Under the pieces are notes generated by a model that did no database searches, was not told the origin of the DNA, and was given only the letters and a program-made list of their open reading frames with translations. 64,000 nucleotides of DNA from Escherichia coli (GTDB lineage: Bacteria > Pseudomonadota > Gammaproteobacteria > Enterobacterales > Enterobacteriaceae). Made by a program: the position numbers and the translations under genes. Positions 9,245 to 54,273 of the stretch are shown here, one piece after another; positions within the stretch are counted from its first letter, which is position 1; every line of letters begins with the position of its first letter. The stretch lies in NCBI RefSeq assembly GCF_013122565.1, contig NZ_CP053258.1; one strand, 5' to 3'.

Positions 9245-10175
9245 CGAACGCTCCCAGACGTTTCACGAACGCCAGGTACAGTGCGATGAGAATAATCGGC
9301 ACCAGGGTGAATGCCGCCGCCATCGGCATATTGCCAATCGCCCCCTGCTGGGAATAAACCATATTGCCGATAAAATATCCTGGAGGACCAACCAGCTGCG
9401 GGACGATAAAATCGCCCAGTGTGAGTGAGAAGGTAAAGATAGAGCCAGCGGCAATACCCGGGATTGCCAGCGGCAGCACCACATAGCGAAAGGTTTGTCG
9501 TGGACGTGCGCCGAGATCAGCTGACGCCTGCAACAATGACGGAGGCAAACGCTCAAGCGCCGCCTGCACGGGCAGGATCATGAACGGCAGCCAGATATAG
9601 AGAAACACCAGAAAGCGCCCCAGCCCGGAAGTTGACAGAGTATTGCCGCCCACCGCAGGTAATGTAAGGAACGCAGTCAGCAGTGGTTCCAGCCCAAGAT
9701 GTTGTAAAAACCACTGAGCCACGCCATCTTTTGCCAGCAATAACGTCCAGGCATAGGCTTTCACAATGTAGCTCGCCCACATCGGCAACATTACCGCAAT
9801 ATAAAAAAACGCTTTCATTTTCCCGCTGGTATAGCGCGCCATATACCACGCCATTGGAAAAGCCAGAATACCGCTGGCGATAGTGACTGCCACAGCCATA
9901 GTCAGCGTGCGGAGAATGATGTCGTAATTCGCCGGATTAAACAGCGCACGGATATTCTCCAGCGTCAGCTCCGGCGTTACCGACATGGTGAAATCGTCAA
10001 AAGTATAAAATCCCTGCCATAACAGTGTCAGCAGCGAGCCGAAATAGACAATGCCAAACCACATTAGCGGGCCAAGCAGCAGTAAAAACAGCCCCAGCCC
10101 CGGATTACGCCAGAAGAAACCGGACACCTTACCCAGACCTGGACGTGAAGGTGATTGCAATACGTTCATCGCCAT
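9234..10175 (-). CDS. ydcU: ABC transporter permease YdcU (PotB-like)
   Basis: 313-aa membrane ORF with EAA loop ([20 protein letters not shown]); overlaps the ydcV start by 11 nt. Confidence 0.85.
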
Positions 10176-11189
10176 TCACCTCTCCTCAACCAGCGGCACC
10201 ATCACATCACGCGACCAGGAAACCATCACCTGTTGTCCGGGCGTGAGCGTGGAAGGCAGTTCTTCGCCTGTCATATTGGCCTGACTCACCAGCAGTTTTT
10301 CACCGCCGTTCAGTCTCAGTTCAAAACGGGTCGCCGCGCCCTGATACTGCACCGCCTGGATCGTGCCATTAGCCTGCACTTCGCCGGGGATGTTGAAGCG
10401 GATATGTTCCGGTCGCAGGGCGAAGCTTCCCGTCATGCCACAAAGTTTGTCTGCCATCAGTGCATCAAAAACATTCGATGTCCCGACGAACCCGGCAACA
10501 AACGGCGTGCGCGGGCGCATATAGAGATCGCGCGGGGAATCGACCTGTTCAATGCGTCCATTATTGAAAACCGCCACACGATCGGACATCGATAACGCTT
10601 CGCCCTGATCGTGGGTAACGAAGATAAAAGTGATACCGAGAGACTGTTGCAGCTTTTTCAGTTCCAGCTGCATCTGCTCACGCAATTTGAGATCCAGTGC
10701 GCCGAGCGGTTCATCCAACAGCAATACGCGCGGTTCATTCACCAATGCTCTGGCGATAGCAACCCGCTGGCGCTGACCACCAGAAAGTTGTGACGGTTTG
10801 CGTTGCTGAACAAAACCCAGCGCCACTTTCTCCAGCGCCTCTTGCGCCATTGCGTGCCGCTGCTTTTTATTCACGCCTTTGACCATCAGCCCGTAGCCTA
10901 CGTTGTCAAGAATCGACATATGCGGAAAAAGCGCGTAGTCCTGAAAGACGGTATTCACGTCCCGCTCCCACGGTGGCAGATTGCTGGCGGGTTTACCAAA
11001 GATAGAGATAGCCCCGCTGGAAAGCTGTTCGAAGCCAGCAATCAGGCGTAGGCAGGTGGTTTTGCCGGAGCCGGACGGCCCCAGCATAGAGAAGAACTCA
11101 CCATCTTTTATCGCAATACTGACGCCATCTACTGCGCGCACGTCACCGTACAACCGCGAGACGTTGTCAAACTCCACTGCGTACGTCAT
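10176..11189 (-). CDS. ydcT: ABC transporter ATP-binding protein YdcT (PotA-like)
   Basis: 337-aa ORF with Walker A GPSGSGKTT, signature LSGGQRQR and Walker B LLLDEP. Confidence 0.9.
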   Translation of the reverse strand: MTYAVEFDNVSRLYGDVRAVDGVSIAIKDGEFFSMLGPSGSGKTTCLRLIAGFEQLSSGAISIFGKPASNLPPWERDVNTVFQDYALFPHMSILDNVGYGLMVKGVNKKQRHAMAQEALEKVALGFVQQRKPSQLSGGQRQRVAIARALVNEPRVLLLDEPLGALDLKLREQMQLELKKLQQSLGITFIFVTHDQGEALSMSDRVAVFNNGRIEQVDSPRDLYMRPRTPFVAGFVGTSNVFDALMADKLCGMTGSFALRPEHIRFNIPGEVQANGTIQAVQYQGAATRFELRLNGGEKLLVSQANMTGEELPSTLTPGQQVMVSWSRDVMVPLVEER

Positions 11190-11206
11190 AAAGCACCCCA
11201 GCGAAG

Positions 11207-12352
11207 TTAGCGACCGCCCATAATGGCAATGTAATCCTGCGTCCAGCGACTGTAGGGAACAAACTTGCCCCCTTCTGCTATAGGCGTTTTCCAGAAGGCG
11301 ATTTTATCGAAATAGTTAAAACCGTTTGTTTCACACCCTTTCTCGCCTAATAACGGACTGGCTTTACATCCTTCCGGCACTACCGGTAACGAGCCAAACC
11401 AGGCCGCCACATCGCCCTGCACTTTTGGCGTTAATGACCAGTTCATCCATTTGTAGGCGCAAACCGGATGTTTCGCTTCGCTATGCAGCATGGTGGTATC
11501 AGCCCAACCGGTAACGCCCTCCTTCGGGAAAACGGTAGCAACAGGCTGGCCTTCGGCTTTCAGGGCGTTGGCCTGATAGGGCCATGCACTGGAAGCAACC
11601 ACACCCTCGTTTTTGAAATCGCTCATTTGCACGGTAGTGTCATGCCAGTAGCGATGGATCAAACTATGTTGATCGCGCAGCACTTTCAGCACCGACTGGT
11701 ACTGTTCTTCGGTGAGTTGATACGGATCGCTGATGCCCAACTGCGGCTGAGTGGCTTTAACGAACAACGCAGCGTCCGCAATGTAGATAGGGCCATCATA
11801 AGCCTGGACGCGGCCTTTATTGCTCTTGCCGTCCGGCAGATTCTGCTCAACAAAAACCACTTGCCAGCTATCCGGCGGCGTCGGGAAGGTTTTAGTGTTG
11901 TACATCAGCAGGTTCGGCCCCCATTGGTAAGGTGTGCCGTAAACTTTGCCGCCAACGTTAAACCAGTCGCCTTTAACCACGCGCGGATCGAGCGTTTTCC
12001 AGTTGGGAATCAAGGCGGTATTAATCGGCTGCACGCGTTTGCCCATAATCAAACGCAGCGAGGCATCGCCAGATGCCGTAACCAGATCGTAACCCCCTTT
12101 GGCCATCAGACTGACCATTTCATCGGAAGTCGCCGCAGTTTTCACATTCACCGCGCAACCTGTTTCTTTTTCAAATTGCGTCACCCAGTCGTATTGTTTA
12201 TCGGTTTGTCCGCGTTCGATGTATCCCGGCCAGGCGATAATATCCAGTCGCCCTTCCGGTTTATCTAAATTGGTAGGCGGTTCGGCGGCGTGAGCGGTCA
12301 TTATTGTCATGCTGAGCGCACACAGGCTGCTGCGGGCAAATGTCTTGCTCAT
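11207..12352 (-). CDS. ydcS: Periplasmic substrate-binding protein YdcS (polyamine-binding family)
   Basis: 381-aa ORF with an N-terminal signal peptide (MSKTFARSSLCALSMTIMTAHAA); first gene of the transporter cluster. Confidence 0.85.
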   Translation of the reverse strand: MSKTFARSSLCALSMTIMTAHAAEPPTNLDKPEGRLDIIAWPGYIERGQTDKQYDWVTQFEKETGCAVNVKTAATSDEMVSLMAKGGYDLVTASGDASLRLIMGKRVQPINTALIPNWKTLDPRVVKGDWFNVGGKVYGTPYQWGPNLLMYNTKTFPTPPDSWQVVFVEQNLPDGKSNKGRVQAYDGPIYIADAALFVKATQPQLGISDPYQLTEEQYQSVLKVLRDQHSLIHRYWHDTTVQMSDFKNEGVVASSAWPYQANALKAEGQPVATVFPKEGVTGWADTTMLHSEAKHPVCAYKWMNWSLTPKVQGDVAAWFGSLPVVPEGCKASPLLGEKGCETNGFNYFDKIAFWKTPIAEGGKFVPYSRWTQDYIAIMGGR

Positions 12353-17925: not shown

Positions 17926-19098
17926 ATGCGTCTGTTTTCTGTTCCTCCACCCACGCTACTGGCGGGGTTTCTGGCGGTATTAATTGGCTACGCCAGTTCA
18001 GCGGCAATAATCTGGCAAGCAGCGATTGTCGCCGGAGCCACCACTGCACAAATCTCTGGCTGGATGACGGCGCTGGGGCTGGCAATGGGCGTCAGTACGC
18101 TGACTCTGACATTATGGTATCGCGTACCTGTTCTCACCGCATGGTCAACGCCTGGCGCGGCTTTGTTGGTCACCGGATTGCAGGGACTAACACTTAACGA
18201 AGCCATCGGCGTTTTTATTGTCACCAACGCGTTAATAGTCCTCTGCGGCATAACGGGACTCTTTGCTCGTCTGATGCGCATTATTCCGCACTCGCTTGCG
18301 GCGGCAATGCTTGCCGGGATTTTATTACGCTTTGGTTTACAGGCGTTTGCCAGTCTGGACGGTCAATTTACGTTGTGTGGAAGTATGTTGCTGGTATGGC
18401 TGGCAACCAAGGCCGTTGCGCCGCGCTATGCGGTAATTGCCGCGATGATTATTGGGATCGTGATCGTTATCGCGCAAGGTGACGTTGTCACAACTGATGT
18501 TGTCTTTAAACCCGTTCTCCCCACTTATATTACCCCTGATTTTTCGTTTGCTCACAGCCTGAGCGTTGCACTCCCCCTTTTTCTGGTGACGATGGCATCG
18601 CAAAACGCACCGGGTATCGCAGCAATGAAAGCCGCCGGATATTCAACTCCTGTTTCGCCATTAATTGTATTTACTGGATTGCTGGCACTGTTTTTTTCCC
18701 CTTTCGGCGTTTATTCAGTCGGTATTGCGGCAATCACCGCGGCTATTTGCCAAAGCCCGGAAGCGCATCCGGATAAAGATCAACGTTGGCTGGCAGCTGC
18801 CGTTGCAGGCATTTTCTATTTGCTCGCAGGTCTGTTTGGTAGTGCCATTACCGGGATGATGGCTGCCCTGCCCGTAAGTTGGATCCAGATGCTGGCAGGT
18901 CTGGCGCTGTTGAGTACCATTGGCGGCAGTTTATATCAGGCGCTGCATAATGAGCGTGAGCGCGACGCGGCGGTGGTGGCATTTCTGGTAACGGCAAGTG
19001 GATTGACGCTGGTCGGGATTGGTTCTGCGTTTTGGGGATTAATTGCCGGAGGTGTTTGTTACGTGGTGTTGAATTTAATCGCTGACAGAAACCGATAA
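17926..19098 (+). CDS. ydcO: BenE-family membrane transporter YdcO
   Basis: ORF 17665..19098 trimmed to the internal MRLFSVPPPTLLAGFLAVLIGY start (about 390 aa); polytopic membrane protein. The track ORF start would overlap the divergent ydcN. Confidence 0.8.
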   Translation: MRLFSVPPPTLLAGFLAVLIGYASSAAIIWQAAIVAGATTAQISGWMTALGLAMGVSTLTLTLWYRVPVLTAWSTPGAALLVTGLQGLTLNEAIGVFIVTNALIVLCGITGLFARLMRIIPHSLAAAMLAGILLRFGLQAFASLDGQFTLCGSMLLVWLATKAVAPRYAVIAAMIIGIVIVIAQGDVVTTDVVFKPVLPTYITPDFSFAHSLSVALPLFLVTMASQNAPGIAAMKAAGYSTPVSPLIVFTGLLALFFSPFGVYSVGIAAITAAICQSPEAHPDKDQRWLAAAVAGIFYLLAGLFGSAITGMMAALPVSWIQMLAGLALLSTIGGSLYQALHNERERDAAVVAFLVTASGLTLVGIGSAFWGLIAGGVCYVVLNLIADRNR

Positions 19099-19104
19099 TA
19101 AAAA

Positions 19105-19124
19105 GCGCCATCTAACGATGGCGC
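19105..19124. terminator. Hairpin between convergent ydcO and ydcL
   Basis: gcgccatc / gatggcgc stem with a taac loop, preceded by aaaa on the plus strand (a T-run for the minus-strand ydcL transcript). Confidence 0.6.
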
Positions 19125-19132
19125 GTCTGGAA

Positions 19133-19801
19133 CTACTTTTTGTTAACGTCAAACATGGTGGCATCGGTCGCCATGTCATCAATAACTTGTTTAATATTTT
19201 CGAAAGCCATTGGCGTACTTTCGTTATTCAGGTCTTTACCTTCGCCCTGACGAACGACTTTGATAACCGGTTTATTAGTCGCTGCATCAATCAGCTCACC
19301 TTCAAAATACAAGCGAGTATCCATGGTACGGTGGCCTGTAGCCATTTGCGTCCCCGCAACCACTAATGCAACAGGAACCACTTCATAGAATTGCAGCCCT
19401 TCTTTGCTGGTATCTACACCGGTAATGGCCCCACGGAAAATCAGACTACGCGGCCCCGCGGTGGTAACCAGTGGTTTACGCTGCGCTATCGCTTCTTTCA
19501 TTTCGGTGTTGGTATAGTTCAAAATTTTATCCAGAACTTTCTGCCCTACCTGGGTCGAAGGTTTCGGTACCGGATAATAAGTGATTGGGTTCCAGACGAT
19601 GCTGTCATATTTGCTTTGATCAAAACTCGGGTCTACCCAACGTAAAACCGGTTTACCTGTAGCCGAGGTTGTTTCTTTTAAATCAGAGTAATTGTTTAAA
19701 AAACCAGAATATTTATCTGGCTGGGTGATTTTAGAGGCACAACCAGACAGAGCCAACAAGCCGCATAAAGCTGCAACTTTCGCAAATGATGTGGTACGCA
19801 T
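19133..19801 (-). CDS. ydcL: Lipoprotein YdcL
   Basis: 222-aa ORF with a lipobox (LLALSGC ASK) after the signal peptide. Confidence 0.85.
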   Translation of the reverse strand: MRTTSFAKVAALCGLLALSGCASKITQPDKYSGFLNNYSDLKETTSATGKPVLRWVDPSFDQSKYDSIVWNPITYYPVPKPSTQVGQKVLDKILNYTNTEMKEAIAQRKPLVTTAGPRSLIFRGAITGVDTSKEGLQFYEVVPVALVVAGTQMATGHRTMDTRLYFEGELIDAATNKPVIKVVRQGEGKDLNNESTPMAFENIKQVIDDMATDATMFDVNKK

Positions 19802-48237: not shown

Positions 48238-51200
48238 TTAGAACGTTTTCTTGAAGTTCAGCATCACGCCTTTGTCGCTGATGCCGTCCTCTTTCCAGTT
48301 GTACGCATCCAGGTTCAGTGAGCTTTCTTTGCTGCTGTACTTCACGCCGACGCTTGCCAGGCTGTTGATGCCGCCACCCTTCTGACCGTCATCGACGTTA
48401 AAGTGCTGACTGCCTGCGCCTGCCAGGCTTGCCGTGCGCTGGCTCTTCGCGTAGCTCAGATTCGGCCCGCCTTCCAGCGTGGCGCTAGCGCTCCAGCCGT
48501 CTTTACCTGCGTAATCCAGTTTCAACCCGACGATGCTGTCCACCGCCGTTTCGCTGCCACTGTTCATATTCAGGTTAAAGTCTCCGGCATTGCGCTCCTG
48601 ATAGCCACCTTCCAGTGTGTGACGCAGTTTAACACCCGCATATGGCGTAACCTTCAGTCCTTCGCTCGGTTCGAAAGTCTTCGCCCCTTCGCTGCGGAAC
48701 TCCAGGTACTGCTGCTTCACGTCGGTATCAGCCGTTTTGTTTGTGTTGCTAAATGCAATCGAACGGCTGCTGTCAAGGTTGTGAACGTCATAACGCAATG
48801 CGTTATTCCAGTTCATGCCGTTGTCGAAGGACATCTGATGTTTCAGGCCAAAGAACTGGCTGTAGCCGCCGGTTACGCCGTTGTCGCCCGCTTTCTGCGC
48901 ACCATCGCCATCCAGACGCGCAATACCGTATTCCAGGCTCATGCTCTGGCTTTCGCTCAGGTCGATGGTTTTACGCAATGCCAGCATGTCGTACTCGGTA
49001 TTATTACCTAACTCGGCACGCGGATCGCCTTTCGCCACCACGTTGAACGCCAGACCATTGCCCACTTTCGGCGCGGCATCCGCCAGCATACTAAAGCGGT
49101 TGCTTAACACGCGCGCTTCACGGAACACCGTGGTCGCCAGGCTACCGCTGACCTGTTTCAGGGCGCTGTTCAGTTCGGCGGTGGTGCCAACGTTCAGGCT
49201 GGTATACAGCTCGTTGTTGGTGTAACCCGCATCCAGTGCCTTCGCGACGTCATTTACCGAAGCATCGGTTGCGACATCGGTGTAGGCATTTTTGCTCATG
49301 GTAACGTCAACGTTACCGTTGGCATCGGTGCTGCCTTTGGCGTTCCATACGACCGTAGAGGAAACGATGTTGTCCACACCGCTGATGTTTTCGCCTTTGA
49401 ATACATCGTTAACGACAACGGTGGTATCCGCTGTTCCTGCACTAAACCCGGCATTAACACTCACGTTGTCGCCAATCACCAGGTTATTCGCGCTGAGCGT
49501 ACCGGAACTCCCGTCGCTATTGGTACCGATGGTATAGTTGCTCAGCAGTTGCGGCGCATTTGAATCAGCAGGCGGGGTTGGAACATCACCTTGTGACGGC
49601 GTAGTTGATGCGTCTGGTACGGTGATATCCACAGTACCGTTGTGGTCGTTTTGTGTACCCGTTGTTCCAGGAGCATAAATATCGCATCCGGTATCACACA
49701 GCAGGTTAATTTCACCGTTGTTAATGATGGCTTTCGTTTGCCCACCAAACGCCCAGGAATTATCGGCATAGACATTAATCACACCCGTTTGCGTGTTATT
49801 AATTGTTGTTTCCCGACCATTGCCTTTAATACCAATTAAACCTTCGCCATTGGTTCCATCCTGTTGCCCCTGCTCAGTACCCACATTAATGGTGCCACTG
49901 TTCACCAACTGAACAACATAACTGGTTGTGCCGCCACTGATGCCCACCGCATTATCGCCCTGAACATTAATAACGCCAGCGTTAGCAAAGTTATAACCTC
50001 GTCCTAAATCAACCAACGGAGCCGCAGGGTTAATACCATTGATTACCCCTGTTTCTGTGTTCCAGATCCATTTACCTTTACTGTTCGAGCCAGTACTTTC
50101 GGTTTTGATCGCGCTGTAGCCATTTGTAGCCGTAATGGTTCCACGGTTAACCTGAGATACAGAATCCCCGGTTCTGGTTACATGAATAATCGCGTTTTCA
50201 CCGCCCGTTACCGCATTACCACTATTCGTCAGGGTCGCACCCGCTTCGTTGAAGAACAGGAAACTCCCGTTGATGAGTGATTGCCCATCTTCGGTCACCG
50301 TCATTTCACCGGTATTCACTACGTTCTGTTGATAGCTGTTGCCGGTAATTGAACCGCTGAACTCACCTTCGTTAAAGAAGGAAACCGCACCATTCAACGT
50401 AAGGAGATCTGTTGTCATGCTCCCGGTTTCACGGTTATAGATCGTGGTTTTGCTGTTAATACTGTCAACATCCAGGGTCCCACTATTCTCCAACCCTTGA
50501 GTGACACTCAGTTCGCCATTGATGGTCAGACTGGCATCAGGTTGGTTATATAACCAGCCGTTTGCATCAACATTGCCATTAAGCGTTTCATCTCCGTAGT
50601 TTGCCAGGTTATTAACAACGACAAAACCGTCGGTAGTTGTGGTTTTGCTGATGCTCTCCCCGCTACCAGACAACTCGCTAAGAACATCTTTGTCATCCGG
50701 CGTCACCCCCATATGGGAATCACTTTCATCCATTGGATTACCGAAAAGAGTAATTTTTCCGTAGTTGAGAATGGTACCGGTGCTATCTTTATAAAACGCC
50801 TGACCAATATCAGTATTAATATTAATCACACCATCCTGGTCATTAATGGCCAGACCACCTTGAATTGCCCCCATCGCGAACAACTGGTTATCTTGCTGCT
50901 TCGTCACACCCTCATCGGCGGTGAGATTGATCGTTCCCTGGTTGACAACGGTCCCGCCGCTCATCGCCAGCATACCAAAACCTTCGTTATTAACATTGAT
51001 GGTTCCGGTATTTAACCCACTGGCATCGCCATTTCCGATATCGGTTGACCCTACAACAACGCCACCGGACATAAGATAAGGATGGGGTGGTTGCCAGTAG
51101 GATTTACTAATGATATTGCCATCTTCATCAAGTTCGGGAACAAAACCATCGACATTGATTTCCCCGGCATTTGTCGCCGTGCCTTTAGATGCTGCAGCAG

Positions 51201-54200
51201 CATAGTTTCCCGCGCCTTGCAAATTAATGGTGGCGTCAGATTCATTCACTGTGATGCCGTAATCACTGGCCCACAGCCCGTAGTTGACACCGAAATACCA
51301 TTTCAGGGGGGATTCAGACATCCCGCCTGCGTATGCAGGTGTCGTTACAGAGATCAGATTAATAACCCCACCCGACGCATTCGTAACCTGAGAATTCTGG
51401 CCACGAGCACGCATTGTCCCCCCCCTGGAGAATTCCTCACCGCTAGGTTTGACATTAATAATTCCACTATTAGTGATATGTGCACCATTGTTAGCCGTCA
51501 TTAAATCCTGGCTATCCATTGTGTTAATCACACCTTTGTTTTCAACGCTGGACTGACTGCCAATAGCAGAAATAAGCGCACGTTCAAAGAAGAAAAAGTC
51601 GGTTTCCCTGGCTTTACTGGATATATCCGTTACAGCGTTTTCATCAAATATAACTTTTCCACCGTCCGCCACCGAGACCAACGTAAAGGCACCCAATTCC
51701 TGACGGGTATCCATTGTCGAATGACCACTAATGTTAACGGTATTGTCACCAATAACCGATACGCCATCTATAACATGTGCGGCGCTATCACCACTAATAT
51801 TAATACCGCCATCAATATTAACGGTATTCTTCTCGCCAGAAACAATTATGCCACTCACTAAATTTTCCTGGTGTAGCAGCTCCCCTTGTACGGTGATATC
51901 AACATGGCCACTAATATCTACAGTGTTATTTTTACCACTAATCGTTCCACCTGTTAATGCTGTGATTTGTGCATCAGGGTTATCGCCGAGGATGGAATTA
52001 ACATTGATGCTTCCGTCAACGCTAATATGGCTGTCATTACCCGTCAGACTGAAACCTGTAGCACCCGGCGCATTGCCCTCGCTGTCTGGTTGCTGGAATA
52101 CGTTAATATCGCCGCTTAATTGAACCTGTTCACGGTCACCCGCAATGGATACCCCAGTTCCGTACCGTGAAACATCAATTTCGCCCACGTTACCGAAAAC
52201 TTCATCATCACCATCAATCAGAATCCCCACAGAACCGGAATCCGTGACAACAATTTTGCCTTTATTACTTAACTGCGAGTTATTACCGGCAATATCAATA
52301 CCCGTTGCCCCTCCGCTGACGTAGAGGTCACCTTCCTGGCTAATTGTTGCATTGTGACCGGCAACTTTTGTCCCTACTGCATTCGCACCGTCAACCGTCA
52401 TATCCCCGGCGATATTCATCTCATTGCCATCGCCAGTGATGGTTATACCTGTGGCATTTTCACCCAAAATATTAAGATCATAGGTTGCCAGGGTTATACT
52501 ATTGTTGTCGCCGATAATCTCCATGCCAGTCGTATCGTCTTTAACCAGCATTGAGCCAGCAAGAGAAATACTGCTGCTGTCCCCGGTGATTTTTACACCA
52601 GTACCGCTATTTGTTGTGGTGATGTCTCCCACATTGACAAAGGTAGTATTATCACCATTGATTAACACGCCGTAGGGGTTTCCGTCACTGTCCGCCTGAC
52701 CTACATTGATATCACCAATGTTCATAAAGGTTGTTTGATCGCCATCCAGCAATACACCGATGGAAGTATCATCCACCACAGTAACATTACCCTTATTACT
52801 GACGAGAGTACCTTTACCCTCGGCGTCAATACCGTGTGCGCCACCGCTGACGTATAAATCACCCTGTTGCCTTACAATGGCATCTTCGCCGATAATTTTT
52901 GATCCCGTTGAATTTGCACCATCGACGGTCATGTCGCCTTTGATTTCAATGCGGGCATCATCCCCTGTAATCACACTCCCCGTGCCACCATTCGTGATTT
53001 CGACATCACCAACGGTGTTCAACGTAGTACGATCGCCATTGACAATAACGGCCGTACCACCATCGACATCTGTCTCACCATTATTAGTAATGGTGATATC
53101 GTCACCGGTAAGAATACCTACCACCGAACCTTCACCAATCGCGGTAGTTTGACCGTCGTTGTTCAGGGTGATGTCGTTACCGTCAACGTTTATCACAACG
53201 CCGCCATTCAGCGCGATGTTGCCGCCATGGTCGGTAATAGTGGCATCGTTAATATGGAAATGTTCGCCAGTTGTACCGTCTGCGGTGGTGAGTGACTCTA
53301 TGATTATTTCGATTTTTCCCGCTTCGTCATAGCGCCAGGTGGAGGTTCCGCTCGGATTGACGCCATTGAACGAAGCAGTGTTAGCCGCCTCGTCGACTAA
53401 CCAATCCTTTACGATTGTGGTAGTGCCGCCAGGTCCGGTAAGCGTATAGCTGCCATCGTCATTTTTGGTGTAGGTAAAGGTGGTATCACGTAATTTTAGG
53501 GTCTTCGCGTCCTGATCCCAGGTGACATCGTTTTTATAGACCACTGGATCGTGTTTAACTGGCGTGTCATCGCCACCGTCATCCGGGGTGTCATCGCCGC
53601 CATCATCTGGCGGGACGGGGGTGTCGCCGCCATCATCCGGCGGGACTGGTGTGTCGCCGCCATCATCCGGCGGGACTGGTGTATCACCGCCATCATCCGG
53701 CGGGACTGGTGTGTCGCCGCCATCATCCGGCGGGACTGGTGTGTCACCGCCATCATCCGGCGGGACAGGTGTATCACTGCCATCGTCTGGCGGGACTGGC
53801 GTGTCGCCGCCATCATCCGGCGGGATGGGTGTATCACCGCCATCATCCGGCGGGACGGGTGTATCACCGCCATCATCCGGCGGGACTGGCGTGTCGCCGC
53901 CATCATCCGGCGGGACGGGTGTATCACCACCATCATCCGGCGGGACTGGCGTGTCGCCGCCATCATCCGGCACCGGAGACGAATCGTCATGATGATTATT
54001 ATTATCGTGGAGTGCATATACTGCGACACCTGTGACTGCCGCTGCCAGCCCCACTGCAGCCCAGGGTAATAACTCATTATCTTCAACTGATTTACACTCT
54101 GCCGGCAGCTTTTCTAGCTGTTCTTTACTTAGTGATTTAATATTGGCCGGGCAGCTAATCTTGCTGGATTTACGAGATTCATCCGATGTTTCCGCTATCG

Positions 54201-54273
54201 ACGTATCTGCCGCCCATGTCTGGCTGCTTAACGCCATTGCAACACAGACACTGAGCAATTTTTTCCTTTGCAT
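48238..54273 (-). CDS. ydbA: YdbA, giant type Va autotransporter (AIDA-like), intact 2011-aa reading frame
   Basis: Single 6036-nt ORF: signal peptide, Pro/Asp/Gly decapeptide repeat stalk, very long Gly/Thr/Asn-rich beta-helical passenger with pervasive internal repeats, and a C-terminal beta-barrel translocator ending MLNFKKTF. Confidence 0.9.
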   Translation of the reverse strand: MQRKKLLSVCVAMALSSQTWAADTSIAETSDESRKSSKISCPANIKSLSKEQLEKLPAECKSVEDNELLPWAAVGLAAAVTGVAVYALHDNNNHHDDSSPVPDDGGDTPVPPDDGGDTPVPPDDGGDTPVPPDDGGDTPVPPDDGGDTPIPPDDGGDTPVPPDDGSDTPVPPDDGGDTPVPPDDGGDTPVPPDDGGDTPVPPDDGGDTPVPPDDGGDTPVPPDDGGDDTPDDGGDDTPVKHDPVVYKNDVTWDQDAKTLKLRDTTFTYTKNDDGSYTLTGPGGTTTIVKDWLVDEAANTASFNGVNPSGTSTWRYDEAGKIEIIIESLTTADGTTGEHFHINDATITDHGGNIALNGGVVINVDGNDITLNNDGQTTAIGEGSVVGILTGDDITITNNGETDVDGGTAVIVNGDRTTLNTVGDVEITNGGTGSVITGDDARIEIKGDMTVDGANSTGSKIIGEDAIVRQQGDLYVSGGAHGIDAEGKGTLVSNKGNVTVVDDTSIGVLLDGDQTTFMNIGDINVGQADSDGNPYGVLINGDNTTFVNVGDITTTNSGTGVKITGDSSSISLAGSMLVKDDTTGMEIIGDNNSITLATYDLNILGENATGITITGDGNEMNIAGDMTVDGANAVGTKVAGHNATISQEGDLYVSGGATGIDIAGNNSQLSNKGKIVVTDSGSVGILIDGDDEVFGNVGEIDVSRYGTGVSIAGDREQVQLSGDINVFQQPDSEGNAPGATGFSLTGNDSHISVDGSINVNSILGDNPDAQITALTGGTISGKNNTVDISGHVDITVQGELLHQENLVSGIIVSGEKNTVNIDGGINISGDSAAHVIDGVSVIGDNTVNISGHSTMDTRQELGAFTLVSVADGGKVIFDENAVTDISSKARETDFFFFERALISAIGSQSSVENKGVINTMDSQDLMTANNGAHITNSGIINVKPSGEEFSRGGTMRARGQNSQVTNASGGVINLISVTTPAYAGGMSESPLKWYFGVNYGLWASDYGITVNESDATINLQGAGNYAAAASKGTATNAGEINVDGFVPELDEDGNIISKSYWQPPHPYLMSGGVVVGSTDIGNGDASGLNTGTINVNNEGFGMLAMSGGTVVNQGTINLTADEGVTKQQDNQLFAMGAIQGGLAINDQDGVININTDIGQAFYKDSTGTILNYGKITLFGNPMDESDSHMGVTPDDKDVLSELSGSGESISKTTTTDGFVVVNNLANYGDETLNGNVDANGWLYNQPDASLTINGELSVTQGLENSGTLDVDSINSKTTIYNRETGSMTTDLLTLNGAVSFFNEGEFSGSITGNSYQQNVVNTGEMTVTEDGQSLINGSFLFFNEAGATLTNSGNAVTGGENAIIHVTRTGDSVSQVNRGTITATNGYSAIKTESTGSNSKGKWIWNTETGVINGINPAAPLVDLGRGYNFANAGVINVQGDNAVGISGGTTSYVVQLVNSGTINVGTEQGQQDGTNGEGLIGIKGNGRETTINNTQTGVINVYADNSWAFGGQTKAIINNGEINLLCDTGCDIYAPGTTGTQNDHNGTVDITVPDASTTPSQGDVPTPPADSNAPQLLSNYTIGTNSDGSSGTLSANNLVIGDNVSVNAGFSAGTADTTVVVNDVFKGENISGVDNIVSSTVVWNAKGSTDANGNVDVTMSKNAYTDVATDASVNDVAKALDAGYTNNELYTSLNVGTTAELNSALKQVSGSLATTVFREARVLSNRFSMLADAAPKVGNGLAFNVVAKGDPRAELGNNTEYDMLALRKTIDLSESQSMSLEYGIARLDGDGAQKAGDNGVTGGYSQFFGLKHQMSFDNGMNWNNALRYDVHNLDSSRSIAFSNTNKTADTDVKQQYLEFRSEGAKTFEPSEGLKVTPYAGVKLRHTLEGGYQERNAGDFNLNMNSGSETAVDSIVGLKLDYAGKDGWSASATLEGGPNLSYAKSQRTASLAGAGSQHFNVDDGQKGGGINSLASVGVKYSSKESSLNLDAYNWKEDGISDKGVMLNFKKTF
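53565..53975 (-). repeat. About 13 to 14 near-identical 30-bp tandem repeats inside ydbA, encoding PVPPDDGGDT units
   Basis: Directly visible periodicity: (ggtgtcgccgccatcatccggcgggactgg)n with only a few substitutions; in-frame units (PVPPDDGGDT, PIPPDDGGDT, PVPPDDGSDT) at about residues 100 to 240. Confidence 0.9.

Follow-up and report, generated by a model that had tools for sequence, protein, structure and literature searches.

The 34-bp junction between the convergent genes ydcO and ydcL, in the stretch of E. coli DNA analysed here (64,000 nucleotides, referred to below as the window), is the precise empty target site of the insertion sequence IS609 of E. coli K-12. It is very probably the original, unoccupied ydcO/ydcL junction, IS609 having inserted in one haplotype of the species and the window belonging to a lineage without it. 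The insertion would on this reading have had a single origin, and the window lineage would never have been occupied. The evidence comes from a base-by-base comparison with K-12, from the alleles linked to the insertion in other E. coli genomes, and from the state of the locus in other Escherichia lineages and related genera.

The ydcO/ydcL junction and its terminator

The stop codons of ydcO and ydcL are separated by only 34 bp (positions 19099-19132). ydcO (17926-19098, plus strand; the start is taken from the RefSeq annotation of a locally identical genome) encodes a BenE-family transporter, with a Pfam BenE match, and its product ends ...DRNR-TAA, the stop codon being at 19096-19098. ydcL (19133-19801, minus strand) encodes a DUF3313 lipoprotein, again assigned by Pfam, and its stop codon begins at 19133. 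The sole feature of the spacer is a single hairpin, GCGCCATC-TAAC-GATGGCGC (19105-19124, minus strand), which has an 8-bp stem with six of its eight pairs G-C and a 4-nt loop. For the 56-nt stretch around the hairpin (19090-19145), the minimum free energy is -16.3 kcal/mol (z = -3.7); of 200 shuffled versions, 1 folds equally well. The sequence-only reading of this DNA had described two abutting genes with nothing but a terminator between them and no IS609, and both statements hold: the spacer has the boundaries and the one hairpin given above, and neither IS609 sequence nor its ends were found anywhere in the 64-kb window.

The hairpin was called by a terminator scan on the minus strand, where TTTTTATTAT directly follows the stem. 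The T-tract of this terminator, TTTTTAT, occupies 19098-19104 (minus strand), and its last five bases, TTTAT (19102 to 19098), are the IS609 target motif. Seen from ydcO, on the plus strand, the stem is followed by GTCTGGAAC and no U-tract. The combination that defines a Rho-independent terminator, a GC-rich stem-loop with a U-tract, is present for ydcL and absent for ydcO. The hairpin is therefore predicted to function as the canonical intrinsic terminator of ydcL, and only possibly as a terminator of ydcO as well. It resembles the intrinsic terminators of convergent gene pairs in E. coli in its GC-rich 8-bp stem and 4-nt loop, in its position directly 3' of the stop codons, and in being flanked by an A-tract and a T-tract, one at either end; the U-tract is canonical on the ydcL strand only. 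The hairpin is kept in other Escherichia, in Salmonella and in Citrobacter, and its stem in E. albertii carries a compensatory A-T to G-C change. An Rfam search of the window from 17 to 21 kb, spacer included, found no known RNA.

Comparison with the K-12 locus

The sequence-only reading had placed an IS609-type element (insQ, formerly ydcM) between ydcL and ydcO in K-12. The K-12 chromosome does have insQ there, annotated as 'RNA-guided endonuclease InsQ/TnpB family protein', together with a tnpA pseudogene, and the two genomes do not share the short spacer: the ydcO-ydcL interval measures 1782 bp in K-12 against 34 bp in the window. The K-12 IS609 is 1748 bp long and is placed exactly between window bases 19097 and 19098, so that the window sequence ...CCGATA|ATAAAAAGC corresponds to ...CCGATA(1748 bp)ATAAAAAGC in K-12. 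With the ends of the element written out, the window junction ...GAAACCGATA|ATAAAAAGCGCC... becomes ...GAAACCGATA(TTGACATCC...GCGCACCGG)ATAAAAAGCGCC... in K-12. Compared base by base, the filled and empty sites show no base duplicated or lost and no target-site duplication. Towards ydcO the flanks of the two agree over at least 26 nt, and towards ydcL they agree across the whole hairpin. It is the same locus in both genomes, with the window lacking the element.

In K-12 the insertion point falls within the stop codon of ydcO (TA|A). T plus TGA come from the end of IS609, and K-12 YdcO is one residue longer, ending ...DRNRY-TGA. That the empty site could be an artefact, with IS609 collapsed out of the assembly, is extremely improbable, since the window junction is base-perfect and 2,135 complete genomes have an identical uninterrupted junction.

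Ends, target motif and genes of IS609

By the defining features of the family, a Y1 HUH transposase, a TnpB protein, terminal hairpins and a target motif, IS609 is an IS200/IS605-family element. Read on the insQ strand, its structure is TTTAT | left end (CCGGTGCGCC...) ... right end (...GGAGGATGTCAA) | TATCGGTTTCTG. At four independent IS609 sites (ydcL, a TetR-family gene, a DUF3251 gene and yfaY/yfaV), the left end is directly preceded by TTTAT and the last four bases of the right end are TCAA; the flanks of these sites are unrelated. Both ends have imperfect subterminal hairpins, CCCC(A/G)TCC-TTCA-GGGCGGGG at the left end and CCACGTCC-TTCA-GGGCGTGG at the right.

Like IS608 of Helicobacter pylori and ISDra2 of Deinococcus, IS609 inserts 3' of a fixed tetra- or pentanucleotide without duplication and has imperfect subterminal hairpins, and it shares with IS608 a right end that finishes in TCAA; the IS608 features used in this comparison are established knowledge. 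The target motif differs between the three (TTTAT for IS609, TTAC for IS608 and TTGAT for ISDra2), and the tnpA and tnpB genes of IS609 are divergent, as in IS605 but unlike IS608 and ISDra2. In the IS200/IS605 family the top strand is expected to equal the lagging-strand template. The GC skew of the window plus strand is -0.05 and insQ lies on the minus strand; the negative skew suggests, as an indirect test, that the top strand of IS609 is the lagging-strand template.

Pfam identifies a Y1_Tnp domain in the intact TnpA of O157, and OrfB_IS605, Cas12f1-like_TNB and HTH domains in InsQ. In K-12 InsQ/TnpB is intact (402 aa), and tnpA has decayed to a pseudogene. InsQ matches the TnpB of ISDra2 (8EXA) with E = 2e-54 and keeps the RuvC-type motifs GLDAG, IEDL and NADVN. 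Eight IS609 copies were compared (those in L001, L002, L003, L006 and L008-L011). The insQ gene is intact at 402 aa in seven of them, with a dN/dS of 0.18-0.57 that has few substitutions behind it, and an intact TnpA, of 143 aa, occurs only in the O157:H7 copy. In most copies the tnpA stop codon is replaced by Gln and the frame continues through the left end. The tnpA lesions at the ydcO site differ: K-12 has a stop at codon 96, O26 and 95JB1 have a 5-bp deletion, and O169 has Y76*. That the K-12, O26 and O169 copies were inactivated by different lesions implies that the gene probably still worked for a while once IS609 had inserted.

Distribution among E. coli genomes

The presence or absence of IS609 at this site is a common polymorphism that is already known, and the K-12 element is annotated and catalogued. 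The survey covered 5,426 complete E. coli genomes, 5,416 of which contain the locus. A ydcO-IS609 junction was found in 3,265 of the 5,416 (~60%) and the uninterrupted ydcO-ydcL junction in 2,135; the other 16 have different arrangements, for example further IS insertions. Filled sites occur in K-12, a BL21(DE3) derivative, O26:H11 11368, KO11FL and O169:H41, and empty sites in O157:H7 Sakai and EDL933, O55:H7 and the type strain ATCC 11775. In one filled strain, 95JB1 (L003:7171-9152), ydcL is additionally split by IS1203.

Ancestry of the empty site

A YdcL scan with one genome per species returned 80 loci. In three non-coli Escherichia (L013, L014 and L015) ydcO adjoins ydcL at the same empty 34-bp junction, with flanks 7-12% diverged, and the motif at the site is CGGAT, CTGAT or CTTAT, not TTTAT. 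E. albertii NBRC 107761 (L016:4167-4353) is uninformative on the ancestral state because it has lost ydcO and sutR; rlhA directly follows ydcL and its terminator. In most Citrobacter, Enterobacter, Klebsiella, Kluyvera and others (most of L017-L091) about 2 kb lie between ydcL and ydcO. In a Citrobacter locus (L017:4167-6177) two genes lie in this gap, one for an EamA/DMT-like transporter of 302 aa and one for an AraC-type regulator of 289 aa, and both are absent in Escherichia, Salmonella diarizonae, Atlantibacter and a few others. Because these two further genes intervene in Citrobacter, Enterobacter and Klebsiella, the 34-bp junction is ancestral only with respect to IS609.

In Escherichia sp. 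MOD1-EC7003 (L012:4199-4260), a diverged Escherichia, the TTTAT that follows the ydcL terminator is likewise occupied, by a 46-bp remnant resembling IS609. The left and right ends of this remnant are fused via a single hairpin and the first 29 nt of the ydcO flank are replaced; beyond it, ydcO is deleted for the most part and sutR in part. This mini-element arrangement was not found in any complete E. coli genome. The presence of the remnant indicates more than one hit at this TTTAT, or an earlier one.

Neighbour-joining (NJ) trees of 3 kb on each side of the junction placed the deep E. coli haplotypes outside a shallow, star-like clade in which filled and empty alleles are interleaved; all five deep haplotypes sampled are empty. 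NJ analysis of the 3-kb flanks was rejected as a means of showing the filled alleles to be one clade, the shallow clade being unresolved and affected by recombination, and a site-by-site analysis, covering 18 loci only, was used instead. Each of the separating sites within 400 bp of the junction (-192, +213, +215 and +360) groups all filled alleles together, and the filled alleles share a derived A at -192 and GG at +213/+215. None of the insertion-linked alleles at -192, +213 and +215 occurs in the window, whose state at -192 and +213 is the ancestral one. Together with the O157-like strain 108 and PapRG-06-5, both of them empty too, the window has kept the states of most deep lineages, and the three have in common a derived C of their own at +360. 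This window-type haplotype extends at least 2 kb on either side of the junction.

The IS609 copies at the ydcO site are 0.9-1.5% diverged and their flanks 0.7-1.5%, a similarity that fits one old insertion which was inherited and occasionally moved by recombination. A filled mosaic allele is seen in O169:H41 F6326-C1 (L006, around 10099-11846), which is of the K-12/O26 type within ~400 bp of the IS and groups with the window-type haplotype further out, beyond ~-1400 and +550. It is therefore recombinant, the IS having been imported with short flanks by homologous recombination.

Excision of IS200/IS605 elements is seamless, as established for IS608 and ISDra2, so the empty site alone is no proof that it was never occupied. 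If IS609 had once been present in the window lineage and TnpA had excised it precisely (peel-and-paste), the 34-bp junction would have been restored and would look identical to the one observed. The different tnpA lesions, which point to a period of intact tnpA after insertion, and the star-like form of the shallow clade both leave room for such an event, as does OkiPb01695, which has an empty site yet carries the insertion-linked alleles and could be either a pre-insertion haplotype or an excision product. The window, however, has none of these linked alleles at -192, +213 and +215, and has instead alleles common to the deep empty lineages. Nor was any natural empty allele found that is nearly identical to a filled haplotype, the best besides the strain EcN_Sk being 99.1% identical over 2 kb. 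We searched the literature on IS609/insQ function and found only cataloguing papers and one report of zero transposition, in which the single IS609 copy of K-12 underwent 0 events in mutation-accumulation lines (PMC5009759). Taken with the allele states, we consider precise excision in the window lineage very improbable.

EcN_Sk (NZ_CP172017.1 2601001-2651000, L100) is empty and shows 0 differences from K-12 (L101) in 5,655 bp of flanks. It is the only K-12-identical empty allele among the 5,426 genomes, and mcbR-curA, hicAB and trg-hokB are missing from its K-12-type segment as well. We rejected it as a case of natural precise excision on account of this uniqueness and of the other deletions in the same segment, which looks engineered or like part of a chimeric reduced genome.

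It is very improbable, too, that the lineage was once filled and that its allele was later replaced through homologous recombination with an empty-site donor. The locus is recombinogenic, as the O169:H41 mosaic shows, and the window itself appears, from sequence identity, to be a mosaic from a poorly sampled lineage: over the 21 kb from 9000 to 30000 none of the 5,426 complete E. coli genomes exceeds 99.0% identity, and an 801-bp piece is 100% identical to PapRG-06-5, a genome that is 97.9% identical overall. Against replacement, there is no positive sign that the window background ever had the insertion, and its haplotype continues across the junction for the at least 2 kb on both sides noted above. 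The junction had been described as presumably ancestral in the sequence-only reading, and an original, unoccupied site is supported by the empty outgroup lineages, the empty deep haplotypes and the absence of insertion-linked alleles in the window, with the caveats that excision leaves no trace and that the short spacer is ancestral with respect to IS609 only.

Elsewhere in the window, an intact 2011-aa ORF (48238-54273, minus strand) occupies the position of a ydbA-like autotransporter gene. The segment 49351-54779 gave no megablast alignment with the otherwise collinear PapRG-06-5, which suggests that this ydbA-like gene is highly variable.

A predicted guide and target for InsQ

TnpB nucleases use a guide RNA whose transcription runs out of the right end of the element into the flank, and according to published work on TnpB the target-adjacent motif (TAM) is the transposon target motif. 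A target has the TAM directly 5' of roughly 16-20 nt that match the right-end flank of the donor copy. In K-12 the right end of IS609 is abutted by TATCGGTTTCTGTCAGCGAT (window 19078-19097, minus strand), which falls within the 26 nt that are identical between the window and the K-12 flank and is the putative guide/target of the K-12 InsQ omega-RNA. The K-12 copy would thus carry the guide TATCGGTTTCTGTCAG.... On the minus strand the window reads TTTAT|TATCGGTTTCTGTCAGCGAT, identical to the K-12 right-end flank and equivalent to a predicted TAM followed by a guide match, and the guide RNA of the K-12 copy would find in the empty site both its motif and a perfectly matching target.

An Rfam search of the IS609 right end for an omega-RNA family gave only sub-threshold matches, to HgcC and RAGATH-18. 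The HgcC (RF00062) match, at L001:2243-2359 (minus strand), reaches 22 bits where the gathering score is 50 (E = 0.02). It covers the right-end hairpin and GGAGGATGTCAA and runs into the flank, and is compatible with an omega-RNA scaffold.

Cleavage of empty alleles by InsQ, as predicted from this match, might bias recombination towards the filled allele, a homing-like drive that could have helped IS609 to reach ~60% of genomes. This idea is suggested because the empty site is a predicted guide target (TTTAT plus a match of at least 20 nt), because insQ is preserved (dN/dS 0.18-0.57) whereas tnpA has degenerated on at least three separate occasions, and because the insertion has moved into window-like backgrounds by recombination, as in O169:H41. 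We nevertheless regard it as rather unlikely.

Discussion

The most probable history of the locus is that of an original junction which received IS609 in only part of the species. The T-tract of the ydcL terminator and the ydcO stop codon together form TTTAT|TA on the minus strand, and in one E. coli haplotype IS609 would have inserted as single-stranded DNA 3' of this TTTAT, without target duplication. The filled allele would then have spread to ~60% of sequenced genomes, among them K-12, BL21 derivatives, O26:H11 and E. coli W, and homologous recombination would have carried it into other backgrounds. The window would be among the ~40% that never received the element, together with O157:H7/O55:H7 and ATCC 11775.

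This is one of many presence/absence differences in insertion sequences between K-12 and other E. coli, and in itself it matters little. The junction does have a use as a simple marker with two states, dividing sequenced E. coli roughly 40/60. The window supplies the exact pre-insertion sequence, which defines the target motif TTTAT, the point within the stop codon of ydcO at which IS609 inserted, and the predicted guide of the K-12 InsQ omega-RNA.
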